Below, piece after piece: positions 33,846 through 50,133 of a stretch of DNA of 64,000 nt (position 1 is its first letter; every line of letters begins with the position of its first letter). The notes under the pieces were generated by a model. It made no database searches. It saw nothing but the letters and a program-made list of their open reading frames with translations, and was not told where the DNA came from. The stretch lies in assembly GCF_056746865.1 (NCBI RefSeq), contig NZ_CM163382.1; one strand, 5' to 3'. A program made the translations under genes and the position numbers.

Positions 33846-34073
33846 TCAGCAACTCTGGTGGACAACCATAAATTCCTGCCATTTTCTTTTGATGTTTGAG
33901 CTAAGCCGTTCCGTCTTTTCGATCCGTTTTAGAGAATTAATCGAGATACCTAACATTTTACTTACTTCAGCAAGCGATAATTTATGCCTGATACGCACGG
34001 CGGCTAGCCAGGATATACCCTGGCTGAACATTAAATTGATAACCTCCCGTTCCTGGTTTTCCAGATCGATCAT
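33846..34073 (-). CDS. small XRE-family helix-turn-helix protein (75 aa), orphan; occupies the deoD-lplA gap
   Basis: ORF-track frame; residues RIRHKLSLAEVSKMLGISINSLKRIEKTER fit the XRE/Cro-type HTH pattern; no partner gene in the 442-bp deoD-lplA gap. Confidence 0.45.
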   Translation of the reverse strand: MIDLENQEREVINLMFSQGISWLAAVRIRHKLSLAEVSKMLGISINSLKRIEKTERLSSNIKRKWQEFMVVHQSC

Positions 34074-34104
34074 ATTTCCTTCCCTGGATATTTTAATGAG
34101 CGAG

Positions 34105-35121
34105 TTACCGTACCGCCCCCGCTATCCATGCCGATAACTCCCGTAGCTCTTTTTCCTGTTCCGGGAAGTCAACCAACAGCGCTTCACACTCCTGTTGCAG
34201 CATGTCAGCGCGGTACAGGCAGCCTTGCAGCCGTCCTGCGAGGGCTTCCAGTGGTGCTGGGTTAAGGCTGTCGGTAAATACCTGGGCGCGGGTGATATGG
34301 CCTTTTTCAACGTCGAAATGCAGTTCCACGCCGCCCCAGGTAAAGCGTTCATCCAGCAGATGCGAGAATGCCGGAGCCTGACCGAAGTTCCACTCCCAGC
34401 TACTCTGACGGGCAAAGGTTTCGGCGAAGTTCGGCAAGTCTGGCGTTTTGTCCGGGGAGATGATTTCCGCTTCCACGTGCTCGCCATAATGGGCGAAAAA
34501 GGCCTCGGTTATGGCCTCGCAAACCTGCTCATGGGTGATCCCCGGCAGCAATTCGGTCAGATTGGTCACGCGGGAACGTACCGACGTAATGCCTTTCGCC
34601 GCCAGTTTCTTTTTATCCGGATTGAGATAGTTTGCCAGGCGGCTAAGGTCGGCATTGAGCAGCAAGGTGCCGTGGTGGAAGCCGCGATCTTTGGTTTCGC
34701 GATAGGCCGAGCCTGAGACTTTGCGGTCGCCTTCGGCGGTTTTCACCACCAGATCGTTACGTCCGGACGCTTCGGCGCTGACGCCGAGCGCGTTCAGCGC
34801 ATTGAGCACAATCGACGTGGAGATGGTTTTATCGTACTCCGGCTTGCCAGCCATAAAGGTAAAGCAGGTATTGCCGAGATCGTGGAACACTGCGCCGCCA
34901 CCGCTGCTGCGCCGCGCCAGGCGGACGTTATCTTCTTCCATCCGCCGGGTATTACACTCTTTCCACGGGTTCTGTGCGCGACCAATCACTACCGTGTCGG
35001 CATTGCGCCAGAGAAACAGAACGCGCTGCGTGGCGGGCATCTGGCGAAAAATACACTCTTCCACCGCCAGGTTAAACCACGGGTCGTAAGAGTCAGAGAT
35101 GAGCAGGCGTAATGTGGACAT
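34105..35121 (-). CDS. lplA: lipoate-protein ligase A
   Basis: 338-aa [28 protein letters not shown]... Confidence 0.92.
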
Positions 35122-35148
35122 AACGATTTCCTTTCTTGTAGTAATGGG

Positions 35149-35793
35149 TCACTCTTTTTTCTCGCTTTCTTCCTCTTCCGGCACCGGTTTGCTGGCGGTT
35201 AACAGGAAGGGCGATTGCTGCCAGCGGGTGCGTTTACCCTGTAGCAGCGTGCGGGTCAGCACTACGCCGATTGCCAGCGAGAGCAGCAACATCAGGCGTA
35301 AAATGTTAGTGGTGTTATCCACCTGTTGGGCTTCGGTGGCGAGCGTATGGGTGTCGAGCGTCAGGCGCAGATAGCCGAGCGGTCCGTTTTTACCCGCAAT
35401 GGGTTCGACAATCTGCTGGTTAAAATAGCCGCCCGCTTTTTTGCCGTCGAGCGCCAGCCGGTCGCGCACGTCGACGCTTTCACCAGAACGGGCGATAAGA
35501 TCGCCTTGTTCATCATATACGCCTGCGTCGAGAATGCGGCTTTCATCCGTTAACTGATCGAGGATCGCCTGAATACGTTTTTCATCCGGTGAGTCGGTAC
35601 GCATCAGCGGTGCAACGTTCAGCGTTACCTGACGCGCCAGGGTGCGGGCTAGTTCTTCCAGCTGTGGATTACGCTGTCGCTGGTGGTTTTGACTAAACCA
35701 TGACGCCCCCTGCATCAGCGCCACTAACAAGGCAAGACAGAACAGGACAATCACTGCCCGATGCAGCCGGAATTTCAGTTTTGTGCGAGCCAT
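35149..35793 (-). CDS. ytjB: inner membrane protein YtjB (Smp)
   Basis: 214-aa ORF with N-terminal TM segment and acidic C-terminal tail (EEEESEKKE). Confidence 0.85.
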   Translation of the reverse strand: MARTKLKFRLHRAVIVLFCLALLVALMQGASWFSQNHQRQRNPQLEELARTLARQVTLNVAPLMRTDSPDEKRIQAILDQLTDESRILDAGVYDEQGDLIARSGESVDVRDRLALDGKKAGGYFNQQIVEPIAGKNGPLGYLRLTLDTHTLATEAQQVDNTTNILRLMLLLSLAIGVVLTRTLLQGKRTRWQQSPFLLTASKPVPEEEESEKKE

Positions 35794-35898
35794 CTTCCAC
35801 CCTTTGAAAATTTGAGACTTAATGTTGCCAGAAGCAATGGATACAAGGTAGCCTCATGCGTTATTTTCCCTGCTTCGAACGATTTTACAGGAGCCTTA

Positions 35899-36867
35899 AT
35901 GCCTAACATTACCTGGTGCGACCTGCCTGAAGATGTCTCTTTATGGCCGGGTCTGCCTCTTTCATTAAGTGGTGATGAAGTGATGCCACTGGATTACCAC
36001 GCAGGTCGTAGCGGCTGGCTGCTGTATGGTCGTGGGCTGGATAAACAACGTCTGACCCAATACCAGAGCAAACTGGGCGCGGCGATGGTGATTGTTGCCG
36101 CCTGGTGCGTGGAAGATTATCAGGTGATTCGTCTGGCAGGTTCACTCACCGCGCGGGCTACGCGCCTGGCCCATGAAGCGCAACTGGATGTCGCGCCGCT
36201 GGGGAAAATCCCACACCTGCGCACGCCGGGTTTGCTGGTGATGGACATGGATTCCACCGCCATCCAGATTGAATGTATTGATGAAATTGCCAAACTGGCC
36301 GGAACGGGCGAGATGGTGGCGGAGGTAACCGAACGGGCGATGCGCGGCGAACTCGATTTTACCGCCAGCCTGCGCAGCCGCGTGGCGACGCTGAAAGGCG
36401 CTGACGCCAATATTCTGCAACAGGTGCGTGAAAATCTGCCGCTGATGCCAGGCTTAACGCAGCTGGTACTCAAGCTGGAAACGCTGGGCTGGAAAGTGGC
36501 GATTGCCTCCGGTGGCTTTACTTTCTTTGCTGAATACCTGCGCGACAAGCTGCGCCTGACAGCCGTGGTAGCCAATGAACTGGAGATCATGGACGGTAAA
36601 TTTACCGGCAATGTGATCGGCGACATCGTTGACGCGCAATATAAAGCGAAAACCCTGACCCGCCTCGCGCAGGAGTATGAAATCCCGCTGGCGCAGACCG
36701 TGGCGATTGGCGATGGAGCCAATGACCTGCCGATGATCAAAGCGGCAGGGCTGGGGATTGCCTACCATGCCAAGCCAAAAGTGAATGAAAAGACGGAAGT
36801 CACCATCCGTCACGCTGACCTGATGGGGGTATTCTGCATCCTCTCCGGCAGCCTGAATCAGAAGTAA
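35899..36867 (+). CDS. serB: phosphoserine phosphatase
   Basis: ORF-track frame 35761..36867; start trimmed to ATG 35899 (MPNITWCDLPEDV, 322 aa); HAD motif DMDST. Confidence 0.9.
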   Translation: MPNITWCDLPEDVSLWPGLPLSLSGDEVMPLDYHAGRSGWLLYGRGLDKQRLTQYQSKLGAAMVIVAAWCVEDYQVIRLAGSLTARATRLAHEAQLDVAPLGKIPHLRTPGLLVMDMDSTAIQIECIDEIAKLAGTGEMVAEVTERAMRGELDFTASLRSRVATLKGADANILQQVRENLPLMPGLTQLVLKLETLGWKVAIASGGFTFFAEYLRDKLRLTAVVANELEIMDGKFTGNVIGDIVDAQYKAKTLTRLAQEYEIPLAQTVAIGDGANDLPMIKAAGLGIAYHAKPKVNEKTEVTIRHADLMGVFCILSGSLNQK

Positions 36868-36915
36868 TTGCCCGCCCGTCATCCTGCGGGCGGCACAGCA
36901 TTAACGAGGTACATC

Positions 36916-38298
36916 GTGGCAAAAGCTCCAAAACGCGCCTTTGTTTGTAATGAATGCGGGGCCGATTATCCGCGCTGGCAGGGGCAGTGCAGTGCCTGTC
37001 ATGCCTGGAACACCATCACCGAGGTGCGTCTTGCAGCGTCGCCAACGGTGGCGCGTAACGAGCGTCTCAGCGGCTATGCCGGTAGCGCCGGGGTGGCAAA
37101 AGTCCAGAAACTTTCCGACATCAGCCTTGAAGAGCTGCCGCGTTTTTCCACCGGATTTAAAGAGTTCGACCGCGTATTAGGCGGCGGCGTGGTGCCGGGA
37201 AGTGCCATTCTGATTGGCGGTAACCCTGGTGCGGGGAAATCCACGTTGCTACTGCAAACGCTGTGCAAACTGGCGCAGCAGATGAAAACGCTGTATGTCA
37301 CCGGCGAAGAGTCGCTGCAACAGGTGGCAATGCGCGCTCATCGCCTTGGCCTGCCGACTGACAATCTTAATATGCTGTCGGAAACCAGCATCGAGCAGAT
37401 CTGCCTGATTGCCGAAGAAGAGCAACCGAAGCTGATGGTAATTGACTCGATCCAGGTGATGCATATGGCGGATGTACAATCATCGCCTGGTAGCGTGGCG
37501 CAGGTGCGTGAAACGGCGGCTTATCTGACGCGCTTCGCCAAAACGCGCGGCGTGGCGATTGTCATGGTCGGGCACGTAACCAAAGATGGCTCGCTGGCTG
37601 GCCCTAAAGTGCTGGAACACTGTATCGACTGTTCGGTGCTTTTGGATGGCGATGCCGACTCCCGTTTTCGCACCTTGCGCAGCCATAAAAACCGCTTCGG
37701 CGCGGTGAATGAGCTGGGCGTCTTCGCGATGACCGAACAGGGGCTGCGTGAAGTTAGCAACCCTTCCGCCATCTTTTTAAGCCGCGGTGATGAAGTGACC
37801 TCCGGTAGCTCAGTGATGGTGGTATGGGAAGGAACGCGTCCACTGCTGGTGGAGATCCAGGCGCTGGTCGATCACTCGATGATGGCGAATCCACGCCGCG
37901 TCGCAGTAGGGCTGGAGCAAAACCGTCTGGCAATCCTGCTGGCTGTCTTGCACCGTCACGGTGGTCTGCAAATGGCCGATCAGGATGTGTTTGTGAACGT
38001 GGTCGGCGGCGTGAAGGTAACCGAAACCAGCGCCGACTTAGCGTTACTGCTGGCGATGGTTTCCAGCCTGCGTGACAGACCGCTGCCACAGGATCTGGTG
38101 GTGTTTGGTGAAGTCGGGCTGGCAGGGGAGATCCGCCCGGTGCCCAGCGGCCAGGAACGAATCTCTGAAGCGGCGAAACACGGTTTTCGGCGGGCGATTG
38201 TTCCGGCGGCTAATGTGCCGAAAAAAGCGCCGGAAGGGATGCAGATTTTTGGCGTTAAAAAACTCTCCGACGCGCTTAGCGTGTTCGACGACTTATAA
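36916..38298 (+). CDS. radA: DNA repair protein RadA/Sms
   Basis: ORF-track frame 36868..38298; start at GTG 36916 (AKAPKRAFVCNECG, 460 aa); zinc finger CNECG..CSAC, Walker A GGNPGAGKST. Confidence 0.9.
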   Translation: MAKAPKRAFVCNECGADYPRWQGQCSACHAWNTITEVRLAASPTVARNERLSGYAGSAGVAKVQKLSDISLEELPRFSTGFKEFDRVLGGGVVPGSAILIGGNPGAGKSTLLLQTLCKLAQQMKTLYVTGEESLQQVAMRAHRLGLPTDNLNMLSETSIEQICLIAEEEQPKLMVIDSIQVMHMADVQSSPGSVAQVRETAAYLTRFAKTRGVAIVMVGHVTKDGSLAGPKVLEHCIDCSVLLDGDADSRFRTLRSHKNRFGAVNELGVFAMTEQGLREVSNPSAIFLSRGDEVTSGSSVMVVWEGTRPLLVEIQALVDHSMMANPRRVAVGLEQNRLAILLAVLHRHGGLQMADQDVFVNVVGGVKVTETSADLALLLAMVSSLRDRPLPQDLVVFGEVGLAGEIRPVPSGQERISEAAKHGFRRAIVPAANVPKKAPEGMQIFGVKKLSDALSVFDDL

Positions 38299-38318
38299 TG
38301 AGAGATACGGAGGGAGAT

Positions 38319-39551
38319 ATGTCGTCATTTGATTACCTGAAAACTGCCATCAAGCAACAGGGCTGCACGCTACAGCAGGTAGCTGATGCCAGCGGTATGA
38401 CCAAAGGGTATTTAAGCCAGTTACTGAATGCCAAAATTAAAAGCCCCAGCGCGCAAAAACTGGAGGCATTGCACCGTTTTTTGGGGCTTGAGTTTCCCCG
38501 CCAAAAGAAAACCATTGGCGTGGTATTCGGTAAGTTCTACCCGTTGCATACCGGACATATCTACCTTATCCAGCGCGCCTGTAGCCAGGTTGACGAGTTG
38601 CATATCATTATGGGCTTTGACGATACCCGTGACCGTGCGTTGTTTGAAGACAGCGCCATGTCGCAGCAGCCCACGGTGCCGGATCGTCTGCGCTGGTTAT
38701 TGCAAACCTTTAAATATCAGAAAAATATCCGTATTCATGCTTTCAATGAAGAGGGCATGGAGCCATATCCGCACGGCTGGGATGTATGGAGCAACGGCAT
38801 CAAAAAGTTTATGGCTGAAAAGGGGATCCAGCCGGACCTGATCTACACCTCGGAAGAAGCCGATGCGCCACAGTATATGGAACATCTGGGGATCGAAACG
38901 GTGCTGGTCGATCCGAAACGCACCTTTATGAGTATCAGCGGTGCGCAGATCCGCGAAAACCCGTTCCGCTACTGGGAATATATTCCCACCGAAGTGAAGC
39001 CGTTCTTTGTGCGTACCGTGGCGATCCTTGGCGGCGAGTCGAGCGGTAAATCCACCCTGGTAAACAAACTTGCCAATATCTTCAATACCACCAGTGCGTG
39101 GGAATATGGTCGCGATTATGTCTTTTCACACCTTGGCGGTGATGAGATCGCATTGCAGTATTCCGACTACGATAAAATCGCGCTAGGACACGCGCAATAT
39201 ATTGATTTTGCAGTGAAATACGCCAATAAAGTGGCGTTTATCGACACTGATTTTGTCACTACCCAGGCGTTCTGCAAAAAGTACGAAGGGCGTGAGCATC
39301 CGTTCGTGCAGGCGCTGATTGATGAATACCGTTTTGATCTGGTTATCTTGCTGGAGAACAACACGCCGTGGGTGGCGGATGGTTTACGCAGCCTCGGTAG
39401 TTCGGTGGATCGCAAAGAGTTCCAGAACTTGCTGGTGGAGATGCTGGAAGAGAACAATATCGAATTTGTGCGTGTTGAAGAGGACGATTACGACAGCCGT
39501 TTCCTGCGCTGTGTGGAGCTGGTGCGGGAGATGATGGGCGAGCAGAGATAA
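38319..39551 (+). CDS. nadR: trifunctional NAD biosynthesis regulator NadR (HTH / NMN adenylyltransferase / ribosylnicotinamide kinase)
   Basis: ORF-track frame 38298..39551; start trimmed to ATG 38319 (MSSFDYLKTAIKQQG, 410 aa); GKFYPLHTGH and GGESSGKST motifs. Confidence 0.9.
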   Translation: MSSFDYLKTAIKQQGCTLQQVADASGMTKGYLSQLLNAKIKSPSAQKLEALHRFLGLEFPRQKKTIGVVFGKFYPLHTGHIYLIQRACSQVDELHIIMGFDDTRDRALFEDSAMSQQPTVPDRLRWLLQTFKYQKNIRIHAFNEEGMEPYPHGWDVWSNGIKKFMAEKGIQPDLIYTSEEADAPQYMEHLGIETVLVDPKRTFMSISGAQIRENPFRYWEYIPTEVKPFFVRTVAILGGESSGKSTLVNKLANIFNTTSAWEYGRDYVFSHLGGDEIALQYSDYDKIALGHAQYIDFAVKYANKVAFIDTDFVTTQAFCKKYEGREHPFVQALIDEYRFDLVILLENNTPWVADGLRSLGSSVDRKEFQNLLVEMLEENNIEFVRVEEDDYDSRFLRCVELVREMMGEQR

Positions 39552-39777
39552 CCGTGACGAAACGGCTCAAAGGCGAGGTATAAATTGAGTTTTTTTGATG
39601 AGTTGAAAAACTCTCTGGAAGAGGCTGTTGAGATTAGAAAGAACCTGCACGGGTGACCCGCTACGAAATTGCAGATGCTAAGGCTATTCGTGAGCAACTT
39701 CATACTCCAACCGACCAGTTGCGTAGCCAGAATGCAATCAAATCTGACAGTCCGCTTCGGCGCGCGCTTTGGTGTAT

Positions 39778-39963
39778 TTACCGGAGTAAATCAGCGTGCC
39801 GTGGAAAATTATGCGCAGCGCTTCTGCTGATTTGCGTACCTTCGCTGATGATAAGTCCTGCACTAGCGTGCTGCGCGTAATAGTCCGCCATTATGTCAGT
39901 CGCAACGTCACCCGCGCGGGAACGCGTCATCGGTGGCATTACAATACGGTTTTTTAATGGCAA
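39778..39963 (-). pseudogene. decayed 5' fragment of an old-yellow-enzyme family NADH:flavin oxidoreductase
   Basis: 61-aa frame PLKNRIVMPPMTRSRA...YYAQHASAGLIISEGTQIS resembles the OYE/NemA N-terminal barrel start, then diverges to a stop; only a TTG start, with an in-frame stop just upstream. Confidence 0.5.
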
Positions 39964-40011
39964 CGCATTCAGCGCATATTTAGCAAATTACGTAATGGGT
40001 CCCTTGCGCGG

Positions 40012-40224
40012 TTATTTGTACAGTTCGGCACTCATGGTGACGGTATTGCCCATGCGAGCGCTGGTGATTTTGTATTCAGAGGCGTTTATCTCTTTCGCTT
40101 TCTGCGCAATAACTGCTTCCGCAGAATCCAGTGTTGTACCGGTTGCTGTTACGCTTTGCGCCGATGCGTTAAACGCCGCGACAGAGAAAAGAGAAGCTGT
40201 AAAAATTGCGATGATCGTTTTCAT
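40012..40224 (-). CDS. small secreted DUF1471 (YdgH/BhsA/McbA-family) protein
   Basis: ORF-track frame 40012..40392; start trimmed to ATG 40224 (MKTIIAIFTASLFSVAAFNASAQ, 70 aa); signal peptide and C-terminal TVTMSAELYK as in BhsA-like proteins. Confidence 0.65.
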   Translation of the reverse strand: MKTIIAIFTASLFSVAAFNASAQSVTATGTTLDSAEAVIAQKAKEINASEYKITSARMGNTVTMSAELYK

Positions 40225-40381
40225 GTTTATATTCCAGAGTGTCTTAATTGTTTGGCGTTTATTAACGCGATGGGGATAGAATACGCCTGCTGCCTGATAA
40301 CATAAATGATACAAATGACAATAGACTATTCTGATTTTGTTAATAATCAGACGCCGGACGTTCCGACGCCTGTCGATTGCA

Positions 40382-40798
40382 TCAGGCAACAAAGTTGTCC
40401 TTCAGCGCCTTGAGACCATCCCGATAGATGCCGGTAAACAGCGCTTCGGCCTCTTCGTTCGTCACATTCACCGGGGTGAATTCACCGAACCATTCCACAC
40501 GAGAAACCTGGCTGTCGGCGGTTTCATGAACGGTAATGGTGGAGAGGTAATCCACCACCGGGAACGGTGCCTGAATAATGGAATAGGTATAACTGCGTTG
40601 ACGGTTATCAAACGCTTCCAGACGTTCAACCACAGTGCCGCCGTCAGAGGTTGTCAGCGAACGAACGCGACCGCCTTCTGTCACTACGCTTTTCGGGATG
40701 AACGGCAGCCAGTCTGGCAGCGCATCAAAGCCGCCCATCAATTGCCATACGGCGTCGGCAGAAGCCGGAATTTCGATCGATACAGTTGTTTTAGCCAT
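40382..40798 (-). CDS. SRPBCC-superfamily (polyketide cyclase/dehydrase-like, Bet v1 fold) protein
   Basis: 138-aa ORF; family assignment by overall resemblance, no catalytic motif verified. Confidence 0.6.
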   Translation of the reverse strand: MAKTTVSIEIPASADAVWQLMGGFDALPDWLPFIPKSVVTEGGRVRSLTTSDGGTVVERLEAFDNRQRSYTYSIIQAPFPVVDYLSTITVHETADSQVSRVEWFGEFTPVNVTNEEAEALFTGIYRDGLKALKDNFVA

Positions 40799-40823
40799 GA
40801 TAATTTTCTCTTAATTTATAGGG

Positions 40824-41621
40824 TTACATTGTTAGGGTGTCGACGACGCCGCCATCGACGCGCAGGGCTGCCCCTGTGGTTGCCGAGGAAAGCGGTGACG
40901 CGAGATAAACCGCCAGATTCGCCACTTCTTCCACATCTGCCGCACGCTGGATGATGGAGCTCGGACGCGAGGTTTTAACAAACTCATCGGCCTGTTCACG
41001 CGCACTGCGTCCCGACTGCGCAGCGGCATCCGCCAGCATCTCTTTCAGGCCATCGGTAAAGGTTGGCCCTGGCAGAATGGCGTTGACGGTCACACCGGTC
41101 CCCGCCAGTCGTTTCGCCAGACCATGAGAGACCGCCAGATTCGCGGCTTTGGTGACGCCGTAGTTGATCATGTCGCCAGGGATTGCCACGCCGGATTCGG
41201 ACGAGACAAAGATAATCCGCCCCCAGCCCTGTTCCGTCATGCCTGGCGCATAGTGACGCGCCAGACGAACGCCGGAAAGGACGTTGACGTTATAGAAGTG
41301 CATCCACTCATCATCCGGAACGCTAAAGAAATCTTTATCGTTGAAAATGCCCAGATTATTGACCAGCACATCAGCCGTTGGGACTGCAGCGATCAGCGCA
41401 GTCACGCCGTCTTCGGTGCTGAGATCGGCCACCACGCCGCGCAGTGACGCCGTGGGAGTTTGTGCCGCAATCGCAGCCATGGCGTCATCAACGCCGCTCT
41501 GTTTACGGCCGACGACAACCACCGTTGCGCCTGCTTTTGCCAGTCCGGCGGCGATACCCTGCCCAATGCCGGAGGTTGAGCCGCTGACCACCGCGACTTT
41601 ACCTGTCAGATCCAGTTTCAT
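40824..41621 (-). CDS. short-chain dehydrogenase/reductase (SDR) family oxidoreductase
   Basis: ORF-track frame 40824..41723; start trimmed to ATG 41621 (MKLDLTGKVAVVSGSTSGIGQGIA, 266 aa); TGxxxGIG cofactor motif and YGVTK catalytic YxxxK. Confidence 0.75.
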   Translation of the reverse strand: MKLDLTGKVAVVSGSTSGIGQGIAAGLAKAGATVVVVGRKQSGVDDAMAAIAAQTPTASLRGVVADLSTEDGVTALIAAVPTADVLVNNLGIFNDKDFFSVPDDEWMHFYNVNVLSGVRLARHYAPGMTEQGWGRIIFVSSESGVAIPGDMINYGVTKAANLAVSHGLAKRLAGTGVTVNAILPGPTFTDGLKEMLADAAAQSGRSAREQADEFVKTSRPSSIIQRAADVEEVANLAVYLASPLSSATTGAALRVDGGVVDTLTM

Positions 41622-41640
41622 CGTTTTCTCACCAGGTTGA

Positions 41641-42651
41641 TTAACGGGTCGGCAGCGGAGCGTTTTCCGCAACCAGATTTTGACGGCGCATTTCTGCCCA
41701 GAATTCAGCCGGAACAGGCGCATTCAGTGCAGCCAGATCTTCTGCCATACGGCCAGGACGGCTGGAGCCAGGAATAACCGCCGCAACGGCCGGGTTTGCC
41801 AGCGCGAACTGCAGCGCAGCTGCTTTAACGTTCACATTGAAACGTGTGGCAATGGTGTTAATTTGCGCCACTTTCTGCTGGATGGCCGCAGAAGCTTTCT
41901 GATATTCAAAGTGCTCGCCGCCTGCCAGTACGCCAGAGCTGTACGGACCGCCCACAACAATATCCACGTTCTGTTCCAGTGCTTCTGGCATCAGGCGTTG
42001 CAGCGCACGTTCGTGATCCAGCAGGGAATAACGCCCCGCCAGCAGGAACGCATCCGGCTTCGGTTCGTCCAGCGCCAGCGTCAGTTCGCAAGGTTCGACG
42101 CGATTCACACCCAGTCCCCAGGCTTTAATCACACCTTCGTCACGCAAACGCGTCAGCGCACGAAACGCACCGGTACGGGCTATGTTGAACTGTTCCAGCC
42201 AGCTGTCACCGTAGAAGTCCTGTGCCGGGTCGTGGATCCAGACAATATCCAGACGGTCTGTTTTCAGGCGTTTCAGGCTGTCTTCAATCGAGCGCAGCGT
42301 GGCGTCAGCAGAGTAGTCATTCAGAATTTTGTTTTTCAGGCCGTGTTCGAACAGGCCACCTTTTTCACCGAAATCACGTTTTGCCGGATCTTCCATTTCG
42401 TCCAGCATGATGCGACCGACTTTGCTGCTCAGAACGTATTCATCGCGTGGATACTGAGACAGCGCTTCACCCATGCGGATTTCAGAAAGGCCAGAGCCAT
42501 ACAGCGGCGCGGTATCAAAGTAACGCACGCCCAGGTTCCAGGCTTCGCTCACGGTGGCGTGGGCCTCGTCTTCCGGAATGGCACGGAACATGTTGCCGAG
42601 TGGTGCGCCACCTAAGCCAATTTTGCCGGGAAGTAAATTTTTGATGCTCAT
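41641..42651 (-). CDS. aldo-keto reductase family oxidoreductase
   Basis: 336-aa ORF; AKR-like N-terminus GLGGAPLG...FDTAPLYGSGLSE; GAGGA ribosome-binding site upstream. Confidence 0.75.
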   Translation of the reverse strand: MSIKNLLPGKIGLGGAPLGNMFRAIPEDEAHATVSEAWNLGVRYFDTAPLYGSGLSEIRMGEALSQYPRDEYVLSSKVGRIMLDEMEDPAKRDFGEKGGLFEHGLKNKILNDYSADATLRSIEDSLKRLKTDRLDIVWIHDPAQDFYGDSWLEQFNIARTGAFRALTRLRDEGVIKAWGLGVNRVEPCELTLALDEPKPDAFLLAGRYSLLDHERALQRLMPEALEQNVDIVVGGPYSSGVLAGGEHFEYQKASAAIQQKVAQINTIATRFNVNVKAAALQFALANPAVAAVIPGSSRPGRMAEDLAALNAPVPAEFWAEMRRQNLVAENAPLPTR

Positions 42652-42693
42652 AAGATGTCCTCAATTATTCGGTTTGGGTTAGGGCGTTTTTTT

Positions 42694-42709
42694 GCTATCG
42701 CCCTGTGAC
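42694..42709. promoter_or_regulatory. perfect CRP-consensus-like palindrome TGTGA-N6-TCACA in the divergent promoter between the AKR operon and the LysR gene
   Basis: TGTGACGTGGATCACA read from sequence. Confidence 0.45.
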
Positions 42710-42784
42710 GTGGATCACAATACCTTGCGAGGTTGTGACTTGATAGGACATAATTCGTCTGACTTAAGTCCTTTGAGGTCTAAC

Positions 42785-43672
42785 ATGATTGATTTACGCC
42801 AACTGAAGTACTTCGTGGTGGTCGCAGAAGAAGAGCACGTGGGACGCGCAGCCGAGCGATTACATATCTCGCAATCACCGCTGAGCCGCCAGATTGCACA
42901 ACTGGAAGAACGGCTGGGGCTGACGCTGTTTGAGCGTAATCAGCAGCGCATTCGCCTGACCGCTGATGGACAGACATTCCTTGCCGAAACACGTTCGTTG
43001 CTGACACACGCCAACCGCCTGGAGTCGTTAGGCAAACGCCTGGGACGGGGGGAAGATGGTGGCTTGTGTATTGGCTATATCGAAAACGCCATGCATTCCG
43101 GTGTGCTTTCTACGGCGCTACGTACGTTACGTGTATCGCGTCCGAATGTGCATATCGCACTTTACAGCCAACCACCGGCTACCCAGATTGAAGGCCTGCG
43201 CCAGCGCAGTCTCGATTTTTCTCTGGTCGACACGCCGCCCACCGACAGCGAGCAGGATCTGGAATATATTCAGGTTCTGGATGATCGAATGTTGTTGGCC
43301 TTACCGCAAAATCATCCTCTGGCGCAGGAGGAAAACCTTGTCGCGTCACAACTTGGCGATGAGCAGTGGATTGCGGTGATTCATAACGACGATGCGCATT
43401 CTCGCGATCATTTTGTCGCCGCCTGTGTTAACGCCGGGTTTAATCCTGATATTCGCCTGGAAGCGGGTGAACCCCTCACGGCATTAGGTTTGGTCGCTGC
43501 GGGATTAGGTCTGGCCTTAATTCAACATAGTCTGCGTCATAATGCGCCGGAAGGGGTGGTATTACGTGAATTGCCGTGGATGAATTATTCAACGCAATTA
43601 TGGGCAGCCTGGCATAAAGCCAACCAACGTCCGCTGGTTTCCCATTTCCGCCAGATCCTGCGCGGTGAATAA
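42785..43672 (+). CDS. LysR-family transcriptional regulator
   Basis: ORF-track frame 42692..43672; start trimmed to ATG 42785 (MIDLRQLKYFVVVAEEEHVGRAAERLHISQSPLSRQIAQLEERLG, 295 aa); LysR N-terminal HTH and C-terminal substrate-binding domain. Confidence 0.8.
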   Translation: MIDLRQLKYFVVVAEEEHVGRAAERLHISQSPLSRQIAQLEERLGLTLFERNQQRIRLTADGQTFLAETRSLLTHANRLESLGKRLGRGEDGGLCIGYIENAMHSGVLSTALRTLRVSRPNVHIALYSQPPATQIEGLRQRSLDFSLVDTPPTDSEQDLEYIQVLDDRMLLALPQNHPLAQEENLVASQLGDEQWIAVIHNDDAHSRDHFVAACVNAGFNPDIRLEAGEPLTALGLVAAGLGLALIQHSLRHNAPEGVVLRELPWMNYSTQLWAAWHKANQRPLVSHFRQILRGE

Positions 43673-43677
43673 AACGT

Positions 43678-43702
43678 TAAGCGGGAACCATGAGTTCCCG
43701 CT
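43678..43702 (+). terminator. hairpin AAGCGGGAAC-N5-GTTCCCGCTT after the LysR gene
   Basis: 10-bp perfect stem read from sequence; T-run weak. Confidence 0.4.
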
Positions 43703-43827
43703 TGATTTGAGGTGTCAGTCCGCATCTGAGCTAATACGCTTAAAGAAAATTCTGCCTTTTTCCGGGGACTAATCATTTAACTAATACCGGATGCGATGCT
43801 GGCGCGCCGCACCCGGCATTTTACGCA

Positions 43828-45495
43828 TTACTTCGCAATACGCTTGTACTTGATACGCTTCGGCTCCAGCGCGTCTGCGCCCAGCGTGCGTTTTTTGTAC
43901 TCTTCGTACTCGGTAAAGTTACCTTCGAAGAACTCAACTTTACCTTCATCCTGGTAGTCCAGGATGTGCGTGGCGATACGGTCGAGGAACCAACGGTCGT
44001 GCGAGATAACCATCGCACAGCCCGGGAACTCCAGCAGGGCGTTTTCCAGCGCGCGCAGGGTTTCGATATCCAGGTCGTTGGTTGGTTCGTCGAGCAGCAG
44101 CATGTTGCCGCCAACCTGCAGCAGCTTCGCCAGATGCAGACGACCGCGCTCACCGCCGGAGAGTTCGCCAACGCGTTTACCCTGATCAACCCCTTTAAAG
44201 TTAAAGCGGCCAACGTAGGCACGGCTTGGCATCTCGGTGTTGCCGATCTTCATGATATCCAGCCCGCCGGAAACTTCTTCCCAAACGGTTTTGCTGTTAT
44301 CCATTGAGTCACGGAACTGATCAACCGATGCCAGTTTCACCGTTTCACCCAAAGTGATGGTGCCGCTGTCCGGCTGTTCCTGACCAGAGATCATACGGAA
44401 CAGCGTCGATTTACCCGCACCGTTCGAACCGATGATCCCGACGATCGCTCCTTTCGGGATCGAGAAGCTCAGGTCATCAATCAGCAGACGATCGCCATAG
44501 GATTTACGCAGATTGCTGACTTCCAGCACTTTGTCGCCAAGACGCGGTCCCGGTGGAATAAACAGTTCGTTGGTTTCGTTACGTTTCTGATATTCGGTGC
44601 TGTTCAGCTCTTCAAAACGCGCCAGACGTGCTTTACCTTTCGACTGACGGCCTTTAGTACCTTGACGTACCCACTCCAGCTCTTTCTCAATCGACTTACG
44701 ACGCGCAGCTTCTTGTGAAGCTTCCTGCGCCAGGCGCTGATCTTTCTGCTCCAGCCAGGAGGAGTAGTTGCCTTCCCACGGAATACCTTCACCGCGGTCC
44801 AGTTCGAGGATCCAGCCTGCAACGTTATCGAGGAAGTAACGGTCGTGGGTAATCGCCACCACGGTGCCCTCGAAGTCGTGCAGGAAGCGTTCCAGCCAGG
44901 CCACGGATTCGGCATCCAGGTGGTTGGTCGGTTCGTCGAGCAGCAGCATGTCTGGTTTTTCCAGCAGCAGGCGGCACAACGCTACGCGACGACGCTCACC
45001 ACCGGAGAGGTTAGCGATTTTCGCGTCCCAGTCCGGCAGACGCAGCGCATCCGCCGCACGCTCCAGCTGAACGTTCAGGTTGTGACCGTCGTGAGCCTGA
45101 ATGATCTCTTCCAGACGGCCTTGTTCAGCGGCCAGCTTGTCAAAATCGGCATCCGGATCGGCGTACAGTGCATACACTTCATCCAGGCGTTTCAGGGCGT
45201 TAACCACTTCAGAAACCGCTTCTTCAATGGACTCACGCACGGTGTGTTCCGGGTTCAGCTGCGGTTCCTGCGGCAGATAACCAATCTTGATATCCGGTTG
45301 CGGACGCGCTTCGCCTTCGATGTCTTTATCAATGCCCGCCATAATGCGCAGCAGGGTGGACTTACCCGCGCCGTTCAGACCCAGGACACCAATTTTTGCC
45401 CCAGGGAAGAAACTCAGAGAGATGTTTTTCAAAATATGACGTTTCGGCGGAACAACTTTGCCGACACGATGCATGGTATAAACGAATTGAGCCAC
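43828..45495 (-). CDS. ettA: energy-dependent translational throttle protein EttA (ABC-F ATPase)
   Basis: 555-aa ORF with two ABC domains (Walker A GLNGAGKST and GSNGAGKST). Confidence 0.92.
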   Translation of the reverse strand: MAQFVYTMHRVGKVVPPKRHILKNISLSFFPGAKIGVLGLNGAGKSTLLRIMAGIDKDIEGEARPQPDIKIGYLPQEPQLNPEHTVRESIEEAVSEVVNALKRLDEVYALYADPDADFDKLAAEQGRLEEIIQAHDGHNLNVQLERAADALRLPDWDAKIANLSGGERRRVALCRLLLEKPDMLLLDEPTNHLDAESVAWLERFLHDFEGTVVAITHDRYFLDNVAGWILELDRGEGIPWEGNYSSWLEQKDQRLAQEASQEAARRKSIEKELEWVRQGTKGRQSKGKARLARFEELNSTEYQKRNETNELFIPPGPRLGDKVLEVSNLRKSYGDRLLIDDLSFSIPKGAIVGIIGSNGAGKSTLFRMISGQEQPDSGTITLGETVKLASVDQFRDSMDNSKTVWEEVSGGLDIMKIGNTEMPSRAYVGRFNFKGVDQGKRVGELSGGERGRLHLAKLLQVGGNMLLLDEPTNDLDIETLRALENALLEFPGCAMVISHDRWFLDRIATHILDYQDEGKVEFFEGNFTEYEEYKKRTLGADALEPKRIKYKRIAK

Positions 45496-45705
45496 GTTGG
45501 ACTTCGCCTCTATGTTTATCGTGATGATGAGTTTTCAAAGGCGAAGTGTAGCCTGTTTCCTTATCTAATCCCAGCCGGTCGATCACCCTCGCAGTAAAAG
45601 TAAAAAAGTGTCCGTAACGTGGCGTAAACGGCAATGACTGGTTAGCATAAATCTATTACGTGGCATGACGCTGCATTGATGTATTTACACTTAGAGGATG
45701 CGCTT

Positions 45706-47643
45706 GTGGAAAAAGCCAAACACGTTACCTGGCGGCTGTTGGCTGCCGGTGTCTGTCTGCTGACGGTCAGCAGTGTGGCGCGAGCCGACTCACTGGATGA
45801 GCAGCGTAGTCGTTACGCGCAAATCAAGCAGGCCTGGGATAATCGACAAATGGACGTGGTCGAACAAATGATGCCTGGACTGAAGGATTATCCGCTTTAT
45901 CCCTACCTGGAATACCGCCAGATCACCGATGACCTGATGAATCAACCGGCGGTGACGGTCACTAACTTTGTTCGCGCTAACCCCACGCTTCCTCCCGCTC
46001 GCACGCTGCAATCTCGTTTCGTCAATGAACTGGCGCGGCGTGAAGACTGGCGTGGCTTGTTAGCCTTTAGTCCGGAAAAGCCCGGAACTACCGAAGCGCA
46101 ATGTAATTACTACTATGCGAAATGGAACACCGGGCAGAGTGAAGAAGCCTGGCAAGGGGCGAAAGAGCTGTGGCTAACCGGCAAGAGCCAGCCTAACGCC
46201 TGTGACAAGTTATTTAGCGTCTGGCGTGCGTCAGGTAAACAAGATCCGCTGGCGTATTTAGAGCGTATCCGTCTGGCGATGAAAGCGGGTAACACTGGCC
46301 TGGTAACAGTGCTGGCAGGGCAGATGCCTGCCGATTACCAGACTATCGCTTCGGCAATCATTTCACTGGCAAACAATCCTAATACGGTACTGACCTTCGC
46401 GCGTACAACCGGAGCGACCGATTTTACCCGTCAAATGGCGGCGGTGGCGTTTGCCAGTGTGGCGCGGCAGGATGCTGAAAATGCACGGCTGATGATCCCG
46501 TCGCTTGCCCAGGCGCAGCAGCTTAATGAAGATCAGATTCAGGAGCTGCGCGATATCGTCGCCTGGCGTTTGATGGGCAACGATGTCACCGACGAACAGG
46601 CGAAATGGCGTGATGACGCCATTATGCGTTCGCAATCTACTTCGCTTATTGAACGCCGTGTGCGAATGGCGCTTGGCACCGGCGATCGTCGCGGCCTGAA
46701 TACCTGGCTGGCGCGTTTGCCGATGGAGGCGAAAGAGAAAGATGAATGGCGTTACTGGCAGGCGGATTTACTGCTGGAACGCGGACGTGAAGCTGAAGCA
46801 AAAGAGATTTTGCATCAACTCATGCAACAGCGTGGTTTCTACCCGATGGTTGCAGCACAACGCATCGGCGAAGAGTATGAGCTGAAGATTGATAAAGCGC
46901 CGCAGAATGTTGACAGCGCCCTGACTCAGGGGCCGGAGATGGCGCGCGTGCGCGAGTTGATGTACTGGAATCTCGATAATACCGCGCGTAGCGAGTGGGC
47001 CAATCTGGTGAAGAGCAAGTCAAAAACAGAGCAGGCTCAACTGGCTCGGTATGCTTTCAATAACCAATGGTGGGATCTTAGCGTTCAGGCAACGATCGCC
47101 GGGAAGCTATGGGATCATCTGGAAGAGCGATTCCCGCTGGCTTACAACGATCTTTTCAAACGTTACACCAGTGGGAAGGAGATCCCGCAAAGCTATGCGA
47201 TGGCGATTGCCCGTCAGGAGAGCGCCTGGAATCCGAAAGTGAAATCACCGGTAGGGGCCAGCGGCCTGATGCAGATTATGCCGGGTACAGCGACCCATAC
47301 GGTGAAGATGTTCTCTATTCCCGGTTATAGCAGCCCTGGGCAATTGCTGGATCCGGAAACAAACATCAACATTGGCACCAGTTACCTGCAATATGTTTAT
47401 CAGCAGTTTGGTAATAACCGTATTTTCTCCTCAGCAGCTTATAACGCCGGACCAGGACGGGTGCGAACCTGGCTTGGCAACAGCGCCGGGCGTATCGACG
47501 CAGTGGCATTTGTCGAGAGTATTCCGTTCTCCGAGACGCGCGGTTATGTGAAGAACGTGCTGGCTTATGACGCTTACTACCGCTATTTCATGGGGGATAA
47601 ACCGACATTGATGAGCGCCACGGAATGGGGACGTCGTTACTGA
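45706..47643 (+). CDS. slt: soluble lytic murein transglycosylase Slt70
   Basis: ORF-track frame 45676..47643; likely GTG start 45706 (EKAKHVTWRLLAAGVCLL, 645 aa); signal peptide, superhelical repeats, C-terminal lysozyme-like domain (ESAWNP). Confidence 0.9.
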   Translation: MEKAKHVTWRLLAAGVCLLTVSSVARADSLDEQRSRYAQIKQAWDNRQMDVVEQMMPGLKDYPLYPYLEYRQITDDLMNQPAVTVTNFVRANPTLPPARTLQSRFVNELARREDWRGLLAFSPEKPGTTEAQCNYYYAKWNTGQSEEAWQGAKELWLTGKSQPNACDKLFSVWRASGKQDPLAYLERIRLAMKAGNTGLVTVLAGQMPADYQTIASAIISLANNPNTVLTFARTTGATDFTRQMAAVAFASVARQDAENARLMIPSLAQAQQLNEDQIQELRDIVAWRLMGNDVTDEQAKWRDDAIMRSQSTSLIERRVRMALGTGDRRGLNTWLARLPMEAKEKDEWRYWQADLLLERGREAEAKEILHQLMQQRGFYPMVAAQRIGEEYELKIDKAPQNVDSALTQGPEMARVRELMYWNLDNTARSEWANLVKSKSKTEQAQLARYAFNNQWWDLSVQATIAGKLWDHLEERFPLAYNDLFKRYTSGKEIPQSYAMAIARQESAWNPKVKSPVGASGLMQIMPGTATHTVKMFSIPGYSSPGQLLDPETNINIGTSYLQYVYQQFGNNRIFSSAAYNAGPGRVRTWLGNSAGRIDAVAFVESIPFSETRGYVKNVLAYDAYYRYFMGDKPTLMSATEWGRRY

Positions 47644-47667
47644 TCCGCACGTTTATGATATGCTATC

Positions 47668-47685
47668 GTACTCTTTAGCGAGTAC
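47668..47685. promoter_or_regulatory. trp repressor operator (GTACTCTTTAGCGAGTAC) in the trpR promoter
   Basis: Palindrome GTACTC-N6-GAGTAC read from sequence about 48 bp upstream of trpR start. Confidence 0.7.
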
Positions 47686-47717
47686 AACCGGGGGAGGCAT
47701 TTTGCTTCCCCCGCTAA

Positions 47718-48580
<863 letters not shown>

Positions 48581-48619
48581 TCAGAAAATTAACGTTACAG
48601 CAGTATACGGAAAAAAAGC

Positions 48620-49267
48620 ATGTTACAGGTATACCTAGTCCGCCACGGTGAAACGCAGTGGAACGCCGAGCGACGTATTCAGGGCCAGTCTGACAGCCCG
48701 CTGACCGCCAAAGGTGAGCAACAGGCGATGCAGGTGGCAACCCGTGCCAAAGAGCTTGGCATTACGCATATCATCAGTAGCGATTTAGGGCGCACCCGGC
48801 GTACGGCGGAAATCATCGCCCAGGCCTGCGGCTGTGACATCATCTTTGATTCTCGCCTGCGTGAATTAAACATGGGTGTGCTGGAAAAAAGACATATCGA
48901 TTCTCTGACCGAAGAAGAAGAGAACTGGCGTCGGCAGCTGGTCAATGGCACCGTTGACGGGCGTATTCCTGAAGGCGAGTCAATGCAGGAGCTCAGCGAT
49001 CGCGTCAATGCGGCACTGGAATCTTGCCGGGACTTACCGCAGGGAAGCCGACCGCTGCTGGTGAGCCACGGTATTGCACTGGGATGCCTGGTGAGTACGA
49101 TTCTCGGATTACCAGCATGGGCAGAGCGTCGCTTACGTCTGCGTAACTGTTCTATTTCGCGCGTGGATTATCAGGAAAGCCTGTGGCTGGCGTCTGGCTG
49201 GGTCGTTGAAACCGCAGGGGACATCTCGCATCTGGACGCCCCTGCATTAGATGAGCTGCAGCGTTAA
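48620..49267 (+). CDS. gpmB: probable phosphoglycerate mutase GpmB (histidine phosphatase family)
   Basis: 215-aa ORF with RHGETQWN catalytic motif. Confidence 0.9.
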   Translation: MLQVYLVRHGETQWNAERRIQGQSDSPLTAKGEQQAMQVATRAKELGITHIISSDLGRTRRTAEIIAQACGCDIIFDSRLRELNMGVLEKRHIDSLTEEEENWRRQLVNGTVDGRIPEGESMQELSDRVNAALESCRDLPQGSRPLLVSHGIALGCLVSTILGLPAWAERRLRLRNCSISRVDYQESLWLASGWVVETAGDISHLDAPALDELQR

Positions 49268-50133
49268 CGACGGATCGGAATCAGTAGTTCACAGCGCAGA
49301 TTAATTGGGCGATCTCCCGCTTTGGCATCTTCTGCCGGGTAGTATCGCTCAATATCCTGACCTTTACGGCGCGTCAGGTTGAGCATTGGCATGCACGTCC
49401 CGTATACCGTCAGGATAAACTCCTGCACGCCGGTTCCCAGACCTTCATAGGTAAACATCACATATTCGCCGCCCTGCAGCATCACCGGATGCCCCGTCAG
49501 TACATAGCCATCTGCCTGATCCTGGGCTAACGCGGTGGTATAGAATACTTCTTGTTCGTCGTCTTTATCCTGACTCGGACGCGTTTCATTCAGGCCGTAG
49601 AGCACCGGCGGAATGGTCGGCGCGTTGCCGAGAAAATCGTGCCAGAACTGATAACGCATTTCATGGCGGAAATCAGAGATTTGCTCCAGCGAACAGGAGT
49701 AGCTCTGGGTAACACCAATCAGCGGCGTATCTTCCAGGGTGACAAATTTGTGCTCTGGCATAGTGAATTCACCCAGACGTAGCGGCGGGCGAATACCAAA
49801 GGCGCTCCATTCAGGAGAACGGCGGTAAAGTGCAGGAGTCTGGGCAAACTGCTTCTTGAATGCGCGGGTAAATGTCTGTTGAGAGTCGAAGCGGTATTGC
49901 AGCGCGATGTCCAGAATCGGACGCGCAGTCAGGCGTAGTGCGACCGCCGATTTCGACAAACGACGAGCACGAATATACGCGCCAATAGCATGGCCAGTGA
50001 CATCTTTAAACATTCTCTGTAAGTGCCACTTGGAATAACCTGCTTTCGCCGCTACATTGTCGAGCGACAGGGGCTGATCCAGATGACCTTCCAGCCAGAT
50101 TAAAAGGTCGCGAATAATGCCGGCCTGATCCAT
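49264..50133 (-). CDS. rob: AraC/XylS-family regulator Rob (right origin-binding protein)
   Basis: 289-aa ORF with N-terminal AraC-type double HTH and C-terminal GyrI-like domain. Confidence 0.92.
   Translation of the reverse strand: MDQAGIIRDLLIWLEGHLDQPLSLDNVAAKAGYSKWHLQRMFKDVTGHAIGAYIRARRLSKSAVALRLTARPILDIALQYRFDSQQTFTRAFKKQFAQTPALYRRSPEWSAFGIRPPLRLGEFTMPEHKFVTLEDTPLIGVTQSYSCSLEQISDFRHEMRYQFWHDFLGNAPTIPPVLYGLNETRPSQDKDDEQEVFYTTALAQDQADGYVLTGHPVMLQGGEYVMFTYEGLGTGVQEFILTVYGTCMPMLNLTRRKGQDIERYYPAEDAKAGDRPINLRCELLIPIRR

Follow-up and report, generated by a model that had tools for sequence, protein, structure and literature searches.

A strain-variable islet between nadR and ettA of Escherichia coli carries a widely conserved AKR–SDR–SRPBCC module with a divergent lysR gene

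Why should 4.3 kb of DNA lie between nadR and ettA in some Escherichia coli chromosomes, when the K-12 derivative DH5a has a spacer of 307 bp at the same place, and what do the genes in that extra DNA do? The stretch considered here (the window) is 64,000 nucleotides of E. coli chromosome from contig NZ_CM163382.1 of RefSeq assembly GCF_056746865.1, in which the gene order is radA–nadR–insert–ettA–slt. The insert, hereafter the islet, holds a gene for a LysR-type regulator on the plus strand and, on the minus strand, four genes and a remnant of an old yellow enzyme (OYE) gene. A first-pass annotation, made by reading the sequence, had placed these genes correctly, had rightly put the K-12 spacer at a few hundred bp, and had read the set as an inducible module for detoxification of a carbonyl, quinone or electrophile, which we regard as plausible. 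We find that the islet is a strain-variable chromosomal insert with discrete ends and without mobility genes, and that its genes belong to a module conserved far outside E. coli. We put at roughly 55% the probability that this module converts one specific membrane-permeant compound, of carbonyl, enone or quinone-like type, in an NAD(P)(H)-dependent manner that is induced through LysR and modulated by CRP, the SRPBCC protein serving as the ligand-binding partner of the aldo-keto reductase (AKR).

The interval 39000–44400 was compared by megablast with 5,426 complete E. coli genomes, and the islet was scored as present when at least 80% of the query was covered. The flanks were matched in 5,424 of these genomes; the islet was present in 482 (8.9%) and absent from 4,944, as expected for the accessory element that the first-pass annotation had proposed. 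A query restricted to the cassette returned the same 482 genomes at 97.8–100% identity, with at least 80% of the cassette matched in all of them, and in each the islet was a single chromosomal copy joined to the nadR and ettA flanks, with none on plasmids. Beyond E. coli, too, no plasmid had the complete cassette, with the exception of a 72%-identical four-gene module on an Ewingella plasmid.

The genes of the islet, taken from the open reading frames and from the RefSeq annotation of an identical locus, are these:

42785–43672, plus strand: LysR-type regulator, 295 aa (Pfam HTH_1, E 4e-24; LysR_substrate, E 1.1e-38)
41641–42651, minus strand: AKR, 336 aa (PF00248, E 1.3e-44, residues 10–322)
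40824–41621, minus strand: classical SDR oxidoreductase, 265 aa (adh_short_C2 PF13561, E 1.7e-43; PF00106, E 9.5e-38)
40382–40798, minus strand: SRPBCC (Polyketide_cyc2) protein, 138 aa (PF10604, E 1.9e-30, residues 1–136)
40012–40224, minus strand: secreted DUF1471 (YdgH/BhsA/McbA-like) protein, 70 aa (PF07338, E 3.9e-10, residues 24–70)
39752–39993, minus strand: remnant of a NemA-like OYE (alkene reductase) pseudogene, located by tblastn

The five intact proteins all pass Pfam profile searches, in agreement with the families first assigned to them, and none reaches an NCBIfam functional (equivalog) cut-off. In NCBIfam the LysR protein comes closest to AlsR (223 bits, where 430 are required), followed by PRK09986 (206.6 against 290) and HcaR (161.8 against 356), and it also falls below the cut-offs for GltC, CatM/BenM and OxyR. 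The AKR scores best with YdjG (71.5 bits against 550), lies further from DkgB (38.4 against 327) and DkgA (27.6 against 425), and is likewise below the YghZ/Gpr and Tas-like cut-offs. The DUF1471 protein begins with a signal-peptide-like sequence, comprising a hydrophobic segment and an ASA/Q-type site (MKTIIAIFTASLFSVAAFNASA/QS), and scores 26–29.5 bits with the BhsA, RclB, YhcN and YbiJ equivalogs, for which the cut-offs are 90–125.

The solved proteins closest to the AKR are plant L-galactose dehydrogenases (PDB 8scc, E 1.8e-29), at approximately 30% overall identity. Similarity is high over residues 10–81, which include the GxGxxPLG...FDT(A/S)PxYG motif, and the candidate catalytic tetrad D46, Y51, K77 and H140 lies in motifs (FDTAPLYG, SSKVG and WIHDP) that align with those of L-galactose dehydrogenase. 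After the catalytic Lys the AKR has a 30-residue insertion relative to the plant enzymes (residues 82–111, MLDEMEDPAKRDFGEKGGLFEHGLKNKILN), which probably reshapes the substrate pocket. JGI records label homologues of this protein 'D-threo-aldose 1-dehydrogenase'. The islet enzyme shares with the L-galactose/D-threo-aldose 1-dehydrogenase clade its N-terminal motif and the Asp-Tyr-Lys-His set, and differs from it in overall identity, in the insertion and in having no sugar-pathway context.

In the SDR, the YxxxK motif reported by the first-pass annotation is present as YGVTK (Y154-x3-K158), whereas the reported TGxxxGIG reads SGSTSGIG (residues 13–20); NNLG at 88 and S142 complete the set of motifs, and R39/K40 after strand beta-2 suggest a preference for NADP(H). 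Its closest named relatives are sorbose reductase, glucose 1-dehydrogenase and 3-hydroxybutyrate dehydrogenase, and its solved homologues are PDB 8g9m (E 3e-137, ∼80% identical in the printed alignment) and 3t4x (E 1e-70). The SRPBCC protein has solved homologues in 3cnw (deposited as 'XoxI', E 4e-52) and 3f08 (E 1e-50), and matches the PYL abscisic-acid receptors weakly (E 4e-4 to 1e-2). No function was found for 3cnw, 3f08, 8g9m or 3t4x in the deposited molecule names or the literature searched, where 'XoxI' led to unrelated papers only; these structural-genomics entries are direct homologues of the SRPBCC and SDR proteins that supply a fold, not a chemistry. An SRPBCC gene of Pseudomonas donghuensis 'cluster 17' was considered and proved unrelated.

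We then asked how far this gene set extends, by a scan with one genome per species that found 571 relatives of the AKR and by reading gene order in the best 80 loci. In ∼75 of these 80 the lysR gene diverges from AKR–SDR–SRPBCC, and this order is kept in Escherichia whittamii, Trabulsiella, Yokenella, Yersinia, Klebsiella, Raoultella, Providencia, Serratia, Ewingella, Acinetobacter and some 60 Pseudomonas species; the module also occurs in Enterobacter bugandensis and Citrobacter. The islet AKR is 96% identical to that of Trabulsiella, 95% to Yokenella, 92% to Yersinia, 85% to Acinetobacter, and still 72–78% to Pseudomonas, Streptomyces and Bacillus-type homologues (75–78% for Pseudomonas, 72–75% for the other two). 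The SRPBCC sequence of Klebsiella pneumoniae appears in 2,456 blocks of the contig index, and the islet SRPBCC protein is 55% identical to a Bacillus-type copy. In Streptomyces, Caballeronia, Paraburkholderia and Bacillus-type genomes the AKR and SRPBCC genes are directly adjacent, 2–33 bp apart, with no SDR between them, from which we infer that the deep core of the module is the AKR–SRPBCC pair with a regulator.

What surrounds this core varies between groups. The DUF1471 gene follows SRPBCC in most Enterobacteriaceae and in Yersinia. Citrobacter amalonaticus, Yokenella and Escherichia strain E69 have an intact NemA-like OYE gene after DUF1471, and Providencia has one nearby; DUF1471 and OYE are an enteric add-on outside the deep core. 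At one locus, in a Bacillus-type genome, a different OYE, of the NamA/YqjM class and only 35% identical, and an HxlR-type regulator precede AKR–SRPBCC, and in Streptomyces an HxlR-type regulator and a second AKR adjoin the pair. The Pseudomonas loci have no functionally linked neighbour: an opposite-strand two-component system and other local synteny are all that recurs, and these are not pathway partners. No transporter, hydrolase, lactonase, dehydratase or aldolase is conserved beside the module in the taxa examined.

The OYE gene of the islet is decayed, as first described. Compared with the intact 365-aa orthologue of E69, which itself scores 396.4 bits against the cut-off of 403 for the NemA subfamily PRK10605, the remnant matches only aa 3–61 and 275–310 by tblastn; its ATG has become ACG, codon 2 is TAA, 686 bp are deleted internally and the 3' end is truncated. 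Inactivation of this gene has occurred at least twice independently, the E. coli islet and E. whittamii each having an internal deletion of its own. A single deletion common to both, as contiguous blastn matches had implied, was rejected when direct alignment gave two different deletions. The OYE gene also appears frameshifted in Trabulsiella odontotermitis; these comparisons of the gene concern 39752–39993 of the window, L012 9656–10111 and L020 4449–5527.

The interval separating lysR from the AKR gene contains the following:

42652–42784, no strand assigned: divergent control region AKR/lysR, 133 bp, holding the putative operator and the CRP box
42735–42781, no strand assigned: putative LysR operator GTGAC-N5-AGGAC-N17-AGTCC-N5-GGTCT, four half-sites forming a pseudo-palindrome that ends 3 bp before the lysR ATG
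42725–42754, for lysR: predicted sigma-70-like promoter TTGCGA-18-CATAAT, with its -10 overlapped by the operator
42704–42719, no strand assigned: perfect CRP-consensus box TGTGA-N6-TCACA (TGTGACGTGGATCACA), the only match in the window

The four half-sites are in register in 80 of the 80 intergenic regions extracted from Gamma- and Betaproteobacteria and are still recognizable in Streptomyces, Paraburkholderia and Caballeronia (loci L096 5831–6001, L093, L095 and L098). Regulator and operon do diverge, as first proposed, and the putative operator between them is conserved in every locus examined. We take the element to be a putative operator of the LysR protein, through which lysR would also be autoregulated. 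Such conservation is unusually deep for regulatory DNA, and suggests that the regulator, operator and enzyme genes have been transferred between phyla as a whole unit. The promoter prediction detected no sigma-70-like promoter for the AKR operon in the control region, as would be expected if that promoter depends on an activator.

This breadth bears on the idea that the module handles a signal or secondary metabolite. On this idea a specific small molecule from a plant, fungus or bacterium, for instance an apocarotenoid, an abscisic-acid-like enone or a butenolide, would be the ligand of a PYR/PYL-like SRPBCC protein and would be modified by the AKR and SDR, the module inactivating or sensing that compound rather than guarding against bulk toxicity. 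The better of the matches to PYL receptors (E 4e-4 to 1e-3) are weak but consistent, the LysR protein and its operator are conserved across phyla, and the hosts of the module are enriched in taxa associated with soil, the rhizosphere and mushrooms, among them the Pseudomonas fluorescens group, P. gingeri, Janthinobacterium agaricidamnosum, Ewingella, Collimonas, Streptomyces and the Burkholderiaceae. However, the resemblance to PYL goes no further than fold and family, 3cnw and 3f08, the solved homologues, have no known ligand, nothing ties the module to any particular compound, and it is common in gut Enterobacteriaceae as well, K. pneumoniae being an example. We consider this explanation improbable.

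The CRP box has a narrower range than the operator. Its one match in the window compares with 0.04 expected by chance, and it is found in 16 of 16 loci from Escherichia, Citrobacter, Klebsiella, Enterobacter, Raoultella, Trabulsiella, Yokenella and Yersinia, with invariant half-sites and a variable N6; it is absent from the loci of Serratia, Providencia, Xenorhabdus, Ewingella, Acinetobacter, Pseudomonas, Burkholderiaceae and Streptomyces. Control by cAMP-CRP is thus predicted for the Enterobacteriaceae and Yersinia. In E. coli the dsdXA, tdc and hca catabolic operons pair a LysR-type activator with CRP, and the islet resembles dsdC–dsdXA, tdcA–tdcBC and hcaR–hca in having a LysR-type regulator beside or divergent from the operon and a consensus CRP site in the control region. 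Unlike the islet module, which has neither, they include genes for a transporter and for an entire catabolic route.

A peripheral catabolic or salvage step has therefore to be weighed. In such a step the AKR would be an NAD(P)+-dependent lactol or aldose 1-dehydrogenase, comparable to the L-galactose, L-fucose or D-threo-aldose dehydrogenases or to pyridoxal 4-dehydrogenase; the SDR and SRPBCC proteins would process its product, and the operon, induced by the substrate through LysR and released from catabolite repression through CRP, would deliver a compound to pathways encoded elsewhere. The conserved CRP box of the enteric and Yersinia loci fits this, as do the retention of the catalytic Asp, Tyr, Lys and His in an AKR whose best solved relatives are L-galactose dehydrogenases, the JGI name of its homologues and the sugar and hydroxyacid enzymes among the named relatives of the SDR, and one particular substrate is suggested by how highly enzyme, regulator and operator are conserved. 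Yet the CRP box is limited to one clade, identity to L-galactose dehydrogenase is only ∼30% with the 30-aa insertion falling in a substrate-side loop, no transporter, lactonase, dehydratase or aldolase accompanies the module in the taxa examined, and the recurrent OYE, HxlR and DUF1471 neighbours suit stress chemistry better. We regard a catabolic role as the main rival reading, with a probability of about one in four, and as rather unlikely.

It could also be argued that the genes have no current function in E. coli and are a decaying hitchhiker, maintained only because they are linked to nadR and ettA. The islet is missing from 91% of E. coli genomes, its OYE gene is wrecked, and later damage is seen in strains E300010 (an IS1 insertion and a deletion fusing SRPBCC with SDR) and CB7453 (IS200C). 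We compared the window genes with those of eight loci, estimating ratios of non-synonymous to synonymous substitution (dN/dS) by the Nei–Gojobori method. For LysR, AKR, SDR, SRPBCC and DUF1471 dN/dS was 0–0.16, pairs of E. coli sequences included, with DUF1471 alone at 0.04–0.14, and amino acid changes in LysR, AKR and SRPBCC were almost nil between E. coli alleles; against strain ETEC1701, for example, the AKR has dS 0.042 and dN 0, and LysR has dN 0. The OYE remnant gave 0.2–0.8, with indels. Values of 0–0.16 imply that, wherever they have been retained, the five intact genes function, and in the E. coli lineages that keep the islet the module evolves like core genes, under strong purifying selection. 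This largely refutes the hitchhiker explanation, since the low ratios hold even between E. coli alleles with dS of 0.04–0.13; the cassette is matched over 80% or more of its length in each of the 482 carriers, and operator and CRP box are intact. We consider it very improbable.

The same comparison bears on age. Between E. coli lineages the dS of the islet is 0.005–0.13, comparable to that of nadR (0.085) and ettA (0.063), and because of this resemblance we conclude that the islet is old, as the first-pass annotation had supposed.

How might the module work? In the reading that we favour, the LysR protein would sit on the four-half-site operator overlapping its own promoter and, on binding one specific small-molecule inducer, would activate the divergent AKR–SDR–SRPBCC transcript, to which cAMP-CRP would add catabolite control in the Enterobacteriaceae and Yersinia. 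The AKR, with the SRPBCC protein as an obligate helper that binds hydrophobic ligands, and the SDR, which probably prefers NADPH, would act as redox enzymes on a carbonyl or lactol carbon. Because the module has no transporter, their target would be membrane-permeant. Reductive neutralization of an electrophile of the enone, enal, quinone or dicarbonyl type would be the most likely case, and in modules that include an ene-reductase, that enzyme would act on the C=C bond of the same compound. Reduction of an electrophile is favoured, on our analysis, by the combination of two NAD(P)H-type oxidoreductases with the lack of a transporter or downstream pathway enzymes, by the presence of OYEs of two classes beside AKR–SRPBCC (in enterics and in the one Bacillus-type genome), by the HxlR-type regulators of the Bacillus-type and Streptomyces loci and the second AKR of the latter, and by a DUF1471 protein of the BhsA/RclB/YhcN stress-protein family.

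Several observations weigh against this reading. A literature search found no paper on the module, its substrate or its inducer, and no module protein reaches a curated equivalog cut-off. The characterized relatives of the AKR oxidize cyclic hemiacetals to lactones, which points to the dehydrogenase direction and away from reductive detoxification, and a CRP box is typical of catabolic operons. The OYE is not required for the core, since it has been lost independently and is absent from most taxa, and the association of OYE and HxlR in Firmicutes is a single locus. Finally, AKR, LysR and operator are conserved far beyond what is usual for a broad-specificity detoxifier; an AKR retaining 72–78% identity, together with the operator, across phyla argues for one specific ligand and not for general electrophile stress. 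A further proposal is that AKR–SRPBCC, with LysR and an operator conserved between Streptomyces and E. coli, is a dedicated system that senses and converts one specific, widespread natural compound, such as a plant or fungal enone, lactol or butenolide. We hold it to be unlikely as it stands, and set out below what it would mean.

Comparison with the stress operons of E. coli is informative in both directions. At yqhC/yqhD–dkgA, a core locus, a divergent AraC-type regulator controls NADPH-dependent carbonyl reductases, including an AKR, that are induced by reactive aldehydes. The islet is similar in its divergent regulator, its AKR and its lack of a transporter, but has a LysR-type regulator, an SRPBCC partner and accessory status, and its enzymes are unrelated at the subfamily level, as the DkgA score given above illustrates. 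The nemRA–gloA and rclR–rclABC operons respond to electrophile and chlorine stress under TetR- and AraC-type regulators. The full enteric module resembles them in ending with a NemA-like OYE and in including a periplasmic DUF1471 protein of the RclB/BhsA family; in the islet, by contrast, the OYE is a pseudogene and the DUF1471 protein lies far under the RclB (28.8 bits against 100) and BhsA (29.5 against 90) cut-offs, and the AKR–SRPBCC core has no counterpart in those operons.

How, then, did the module come to lie between nadR and ettA? The spacer and its borders are made up as follows:

38319–39551, plus strand: nadR, the left flank
39555–39583, plus strand: 29-bp 3' scar left by a toxin gene of the RelE/ParE family, just past the nadR stop codon
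39585–39699, plus strand: nadS 5' fragment with a TTG start and an internal 10-bp deletion, aligned to nadS of strain SCU-301 (L091 886–1170)
39700–39751, no strand assigned: left filler, 52 bp, without homology to nadS, which came with the islet
39745–39763 (plus strand, left copy) and 43713–43731: imperfect 19-nt direct repeat, repeat family D13, 79% identical
43679–43703, no strand assigned: terminator-like hairpin with an 11-bp stem, the right end of the transferable module
43706–43739, no strand assigned: right filler, 34 bp, without homology to nadS, containing the right copy of the direct repeat
43740–43772, plus strand: nadS 3' fragment with an 11-bp deletion and its stop TAA at 43770–43772
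43828–45495, minus strand: ettA, the right flank

The first-pass annotation had taken the whole of the ∼4.3 kb as an inserted cassette. The extra DNA is real, but the insert proper is smaller: alignment to the intact solo nadS of SCU-301 stops at 39699 and picks up again at 43740, so that the foreign DNA is the 4,040 bp from 39700 to 43739, in place of 116 bp from the middle of nadS, an orphan antitoxin-like gene that had by then lost its partner toxin gene. The rest of the spacer is the toxin-gene scar, the two nadS fragments and shared ettA-proximal sequence. In RefSeq the nadS 5' fragment is entered as an incomplete NadS family protein with a frameshift. Homology between the insert and the module of other Escherichia lineages covers only 39752–43705, ending on the right at the hairpin (43703–43705 in the comparisons with E69 and E. 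whittamii). The left filler is confined to islet-bearing genomes (479 of the 5,426).

Four alleles of the site can be distinguished in E. coli. The first has an intact RelE/ParE-family toxin gene with nadS, as in strains G12 (locus L004 2144–2762) and UTI89. Of the 5,426 complete genomes, 673 have this toxin gene intact, and the NadS score of 182.6 bits exceeds the curated cut-off of 60. In the second, found in SCU-301, nadS is intact and alone, the toxin gene being cut to its last 29 bp. The third is the K-12 type, whose spacer is thus not empty: it has the same scar, corresponding to the last bases of the intact gene in G12 (L004 2144–2476), and a nadS truncated by a REP sequence. The K-12 remnant of nadS is expressed according to PIRT-Seq (PMC12350097). 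The islet is the fourth allele, and because the window has the same 29-bp toxin scar we conclude that it descends from the second. No type II toxin–antitoxin locus is left in the window, where 29 bp remain of the toxin gene and nadS is split with 116 bp missing. The RelE/ParE–NadS locus was the ancestral occupant of the site, and the islet is cargo within it, not part of the toxin–antitoxin system.

There is no integrase or insertion sequence (IS) open reading frame in the window and no tRNA gene in a scan of 34000–50000, as the first-pass annotation had stated; an Rfam scan gave no match, and PADLOC models matched none of the five module proteins. Of the hallmarks of a mobile element or genomic island, integrase, transposase and tRNA are thus lacking, and of direct repeats the two edges show only the imperfect 19-nt one. 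Its two copies, TGACAGTCCGCTTCGGCGC and TGTCAGTCCGCATCTGAGC, may be a trace of the insertion mechanism or a matter of chance. Their placement at both edges is suggestive, but was noticed post hoc, and short repeats of this kind are common in the region.

Longer forms of the islet exist. Variant B, in ∼5% of the sampled islet genomes, has an extra 1,581 bp at about 39756 (L005 1263–2843) that encode a TauE/SafE-family protein and a ModE-like winged-helix protein; variant C, in another ∼5%, has at the same insertion point an extra 726 bp with a GNAT gene (L006 1263–1988). The two share their breakpoints on both sides, as if cassettes had been exchanged, and the extra DNA comes after the left filler. 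Both retain 55 bp more of the OYE 3' end and 17–20 bp more on the left, and loss of the DNA between two TTCG microhomologies accounts for the window form. Outside the E. coli islet loci, no retrieved locus matched the fillers or the additional segments of variants B and C. A GNAT gene that follows OYE in Citrobacter was considered as the source of that in variant C and was rejected for want of homology at the DNA level.

Two of the damaged alleles mentioned above can be described further. In CB7453 the IS200C copy lies between lysR and ettA (L001 6352–6810), and in E300010 an IS1A copy lies between nadR and the nadS fragment (L007 303–1000), in addition to the deletion that fuses SRPBCC with SDR. 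We also encountered a 1,397-bp contig assigned to a Collinsella sp. metagenome-assembled genome (JAIJJM010000794.1, L013) with an AKR 100% identical to the islet copy and the same promoter region, which is most likely E. coli contamination of the bin.

The module occupies three sites within Escherichia: between nadR and ettA, after yhiN in strain E69, and after glyS in E. whittamii; in other genera it lies at other sites. E69 (CP089930.1, L011), although labelled E. coli, is 93.6–93.9% identical over the yhiN–pitA region to all 5,421 E. coli genomes that cover it, and from this value of ∼93.7% it looks like a divergent or cryptic Escherichia lineage. It has the complete six-gene module after yhiN, which takes up 4,811 bp between the lysR hairpin and a point 5 bp beyond the OYE stop codon, and the E. 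whittamii module has the same two ends. The E69 module is 97.6% identical to the window, well above the ∼93.7% of its yhiN–pitA region, which argues for exchange within the genus after the lineages had split. E. coli proper has no scar of the module beside yhiN. In two Serratia loci (L022 and L023) the module lies, as in E69, beside the yhiN 3' end and pitA, in the opposite orientation; this could be an old enterobacterial position or a recurrent target. Identity of the module to the window is 88.6% in Citrobacter, 88.5% in Trabulsiella, 81.6% in Yokenella and 77.5% in Klebsiella, and so falls roughly with relatedness of the host. It follows that the module is old in the family and moves as a discrete unit with no visible mobility genes.

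The first-pass annotation had not noticed the insertion within nadS, the two other Escherichia sites, the longer variants or the status of DUF1471 and OYE as an enteric add-on. What is new here comprises the exact nadS junctions and the toxin–antitoxin history of the site, the variant forms of the islet, the finding that the module is both widespread and rigidly ordered, its operator and CRP box, and the evidence of selection. These results leave the biology of E. coli as it is understood, and a LysR-type regulator beside oxidoreductase genes is a commonplace architecture. The locus illustrates how a decayed toxin–antitoxin site can serve as a landing pad for metabolic cargo, and, as a presence/absence polymorphism whose exact empty-site allele is known, it makes an isogenic comparison straightforward. 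If the module does sense and convert one widespread natural compound, the SRPBCC protein would be an obligate ligand-presenting partner, and an undescribed two-protein enzyme system, with an unassigned pathway step, would be present in K. pneumoniae, many Pseudomonas species and 9% of E. coli. Identification of the inducer would annotate thousands of genomes at once, and would give a role to an SRPBCC family whose structures were solved by structural genomics.

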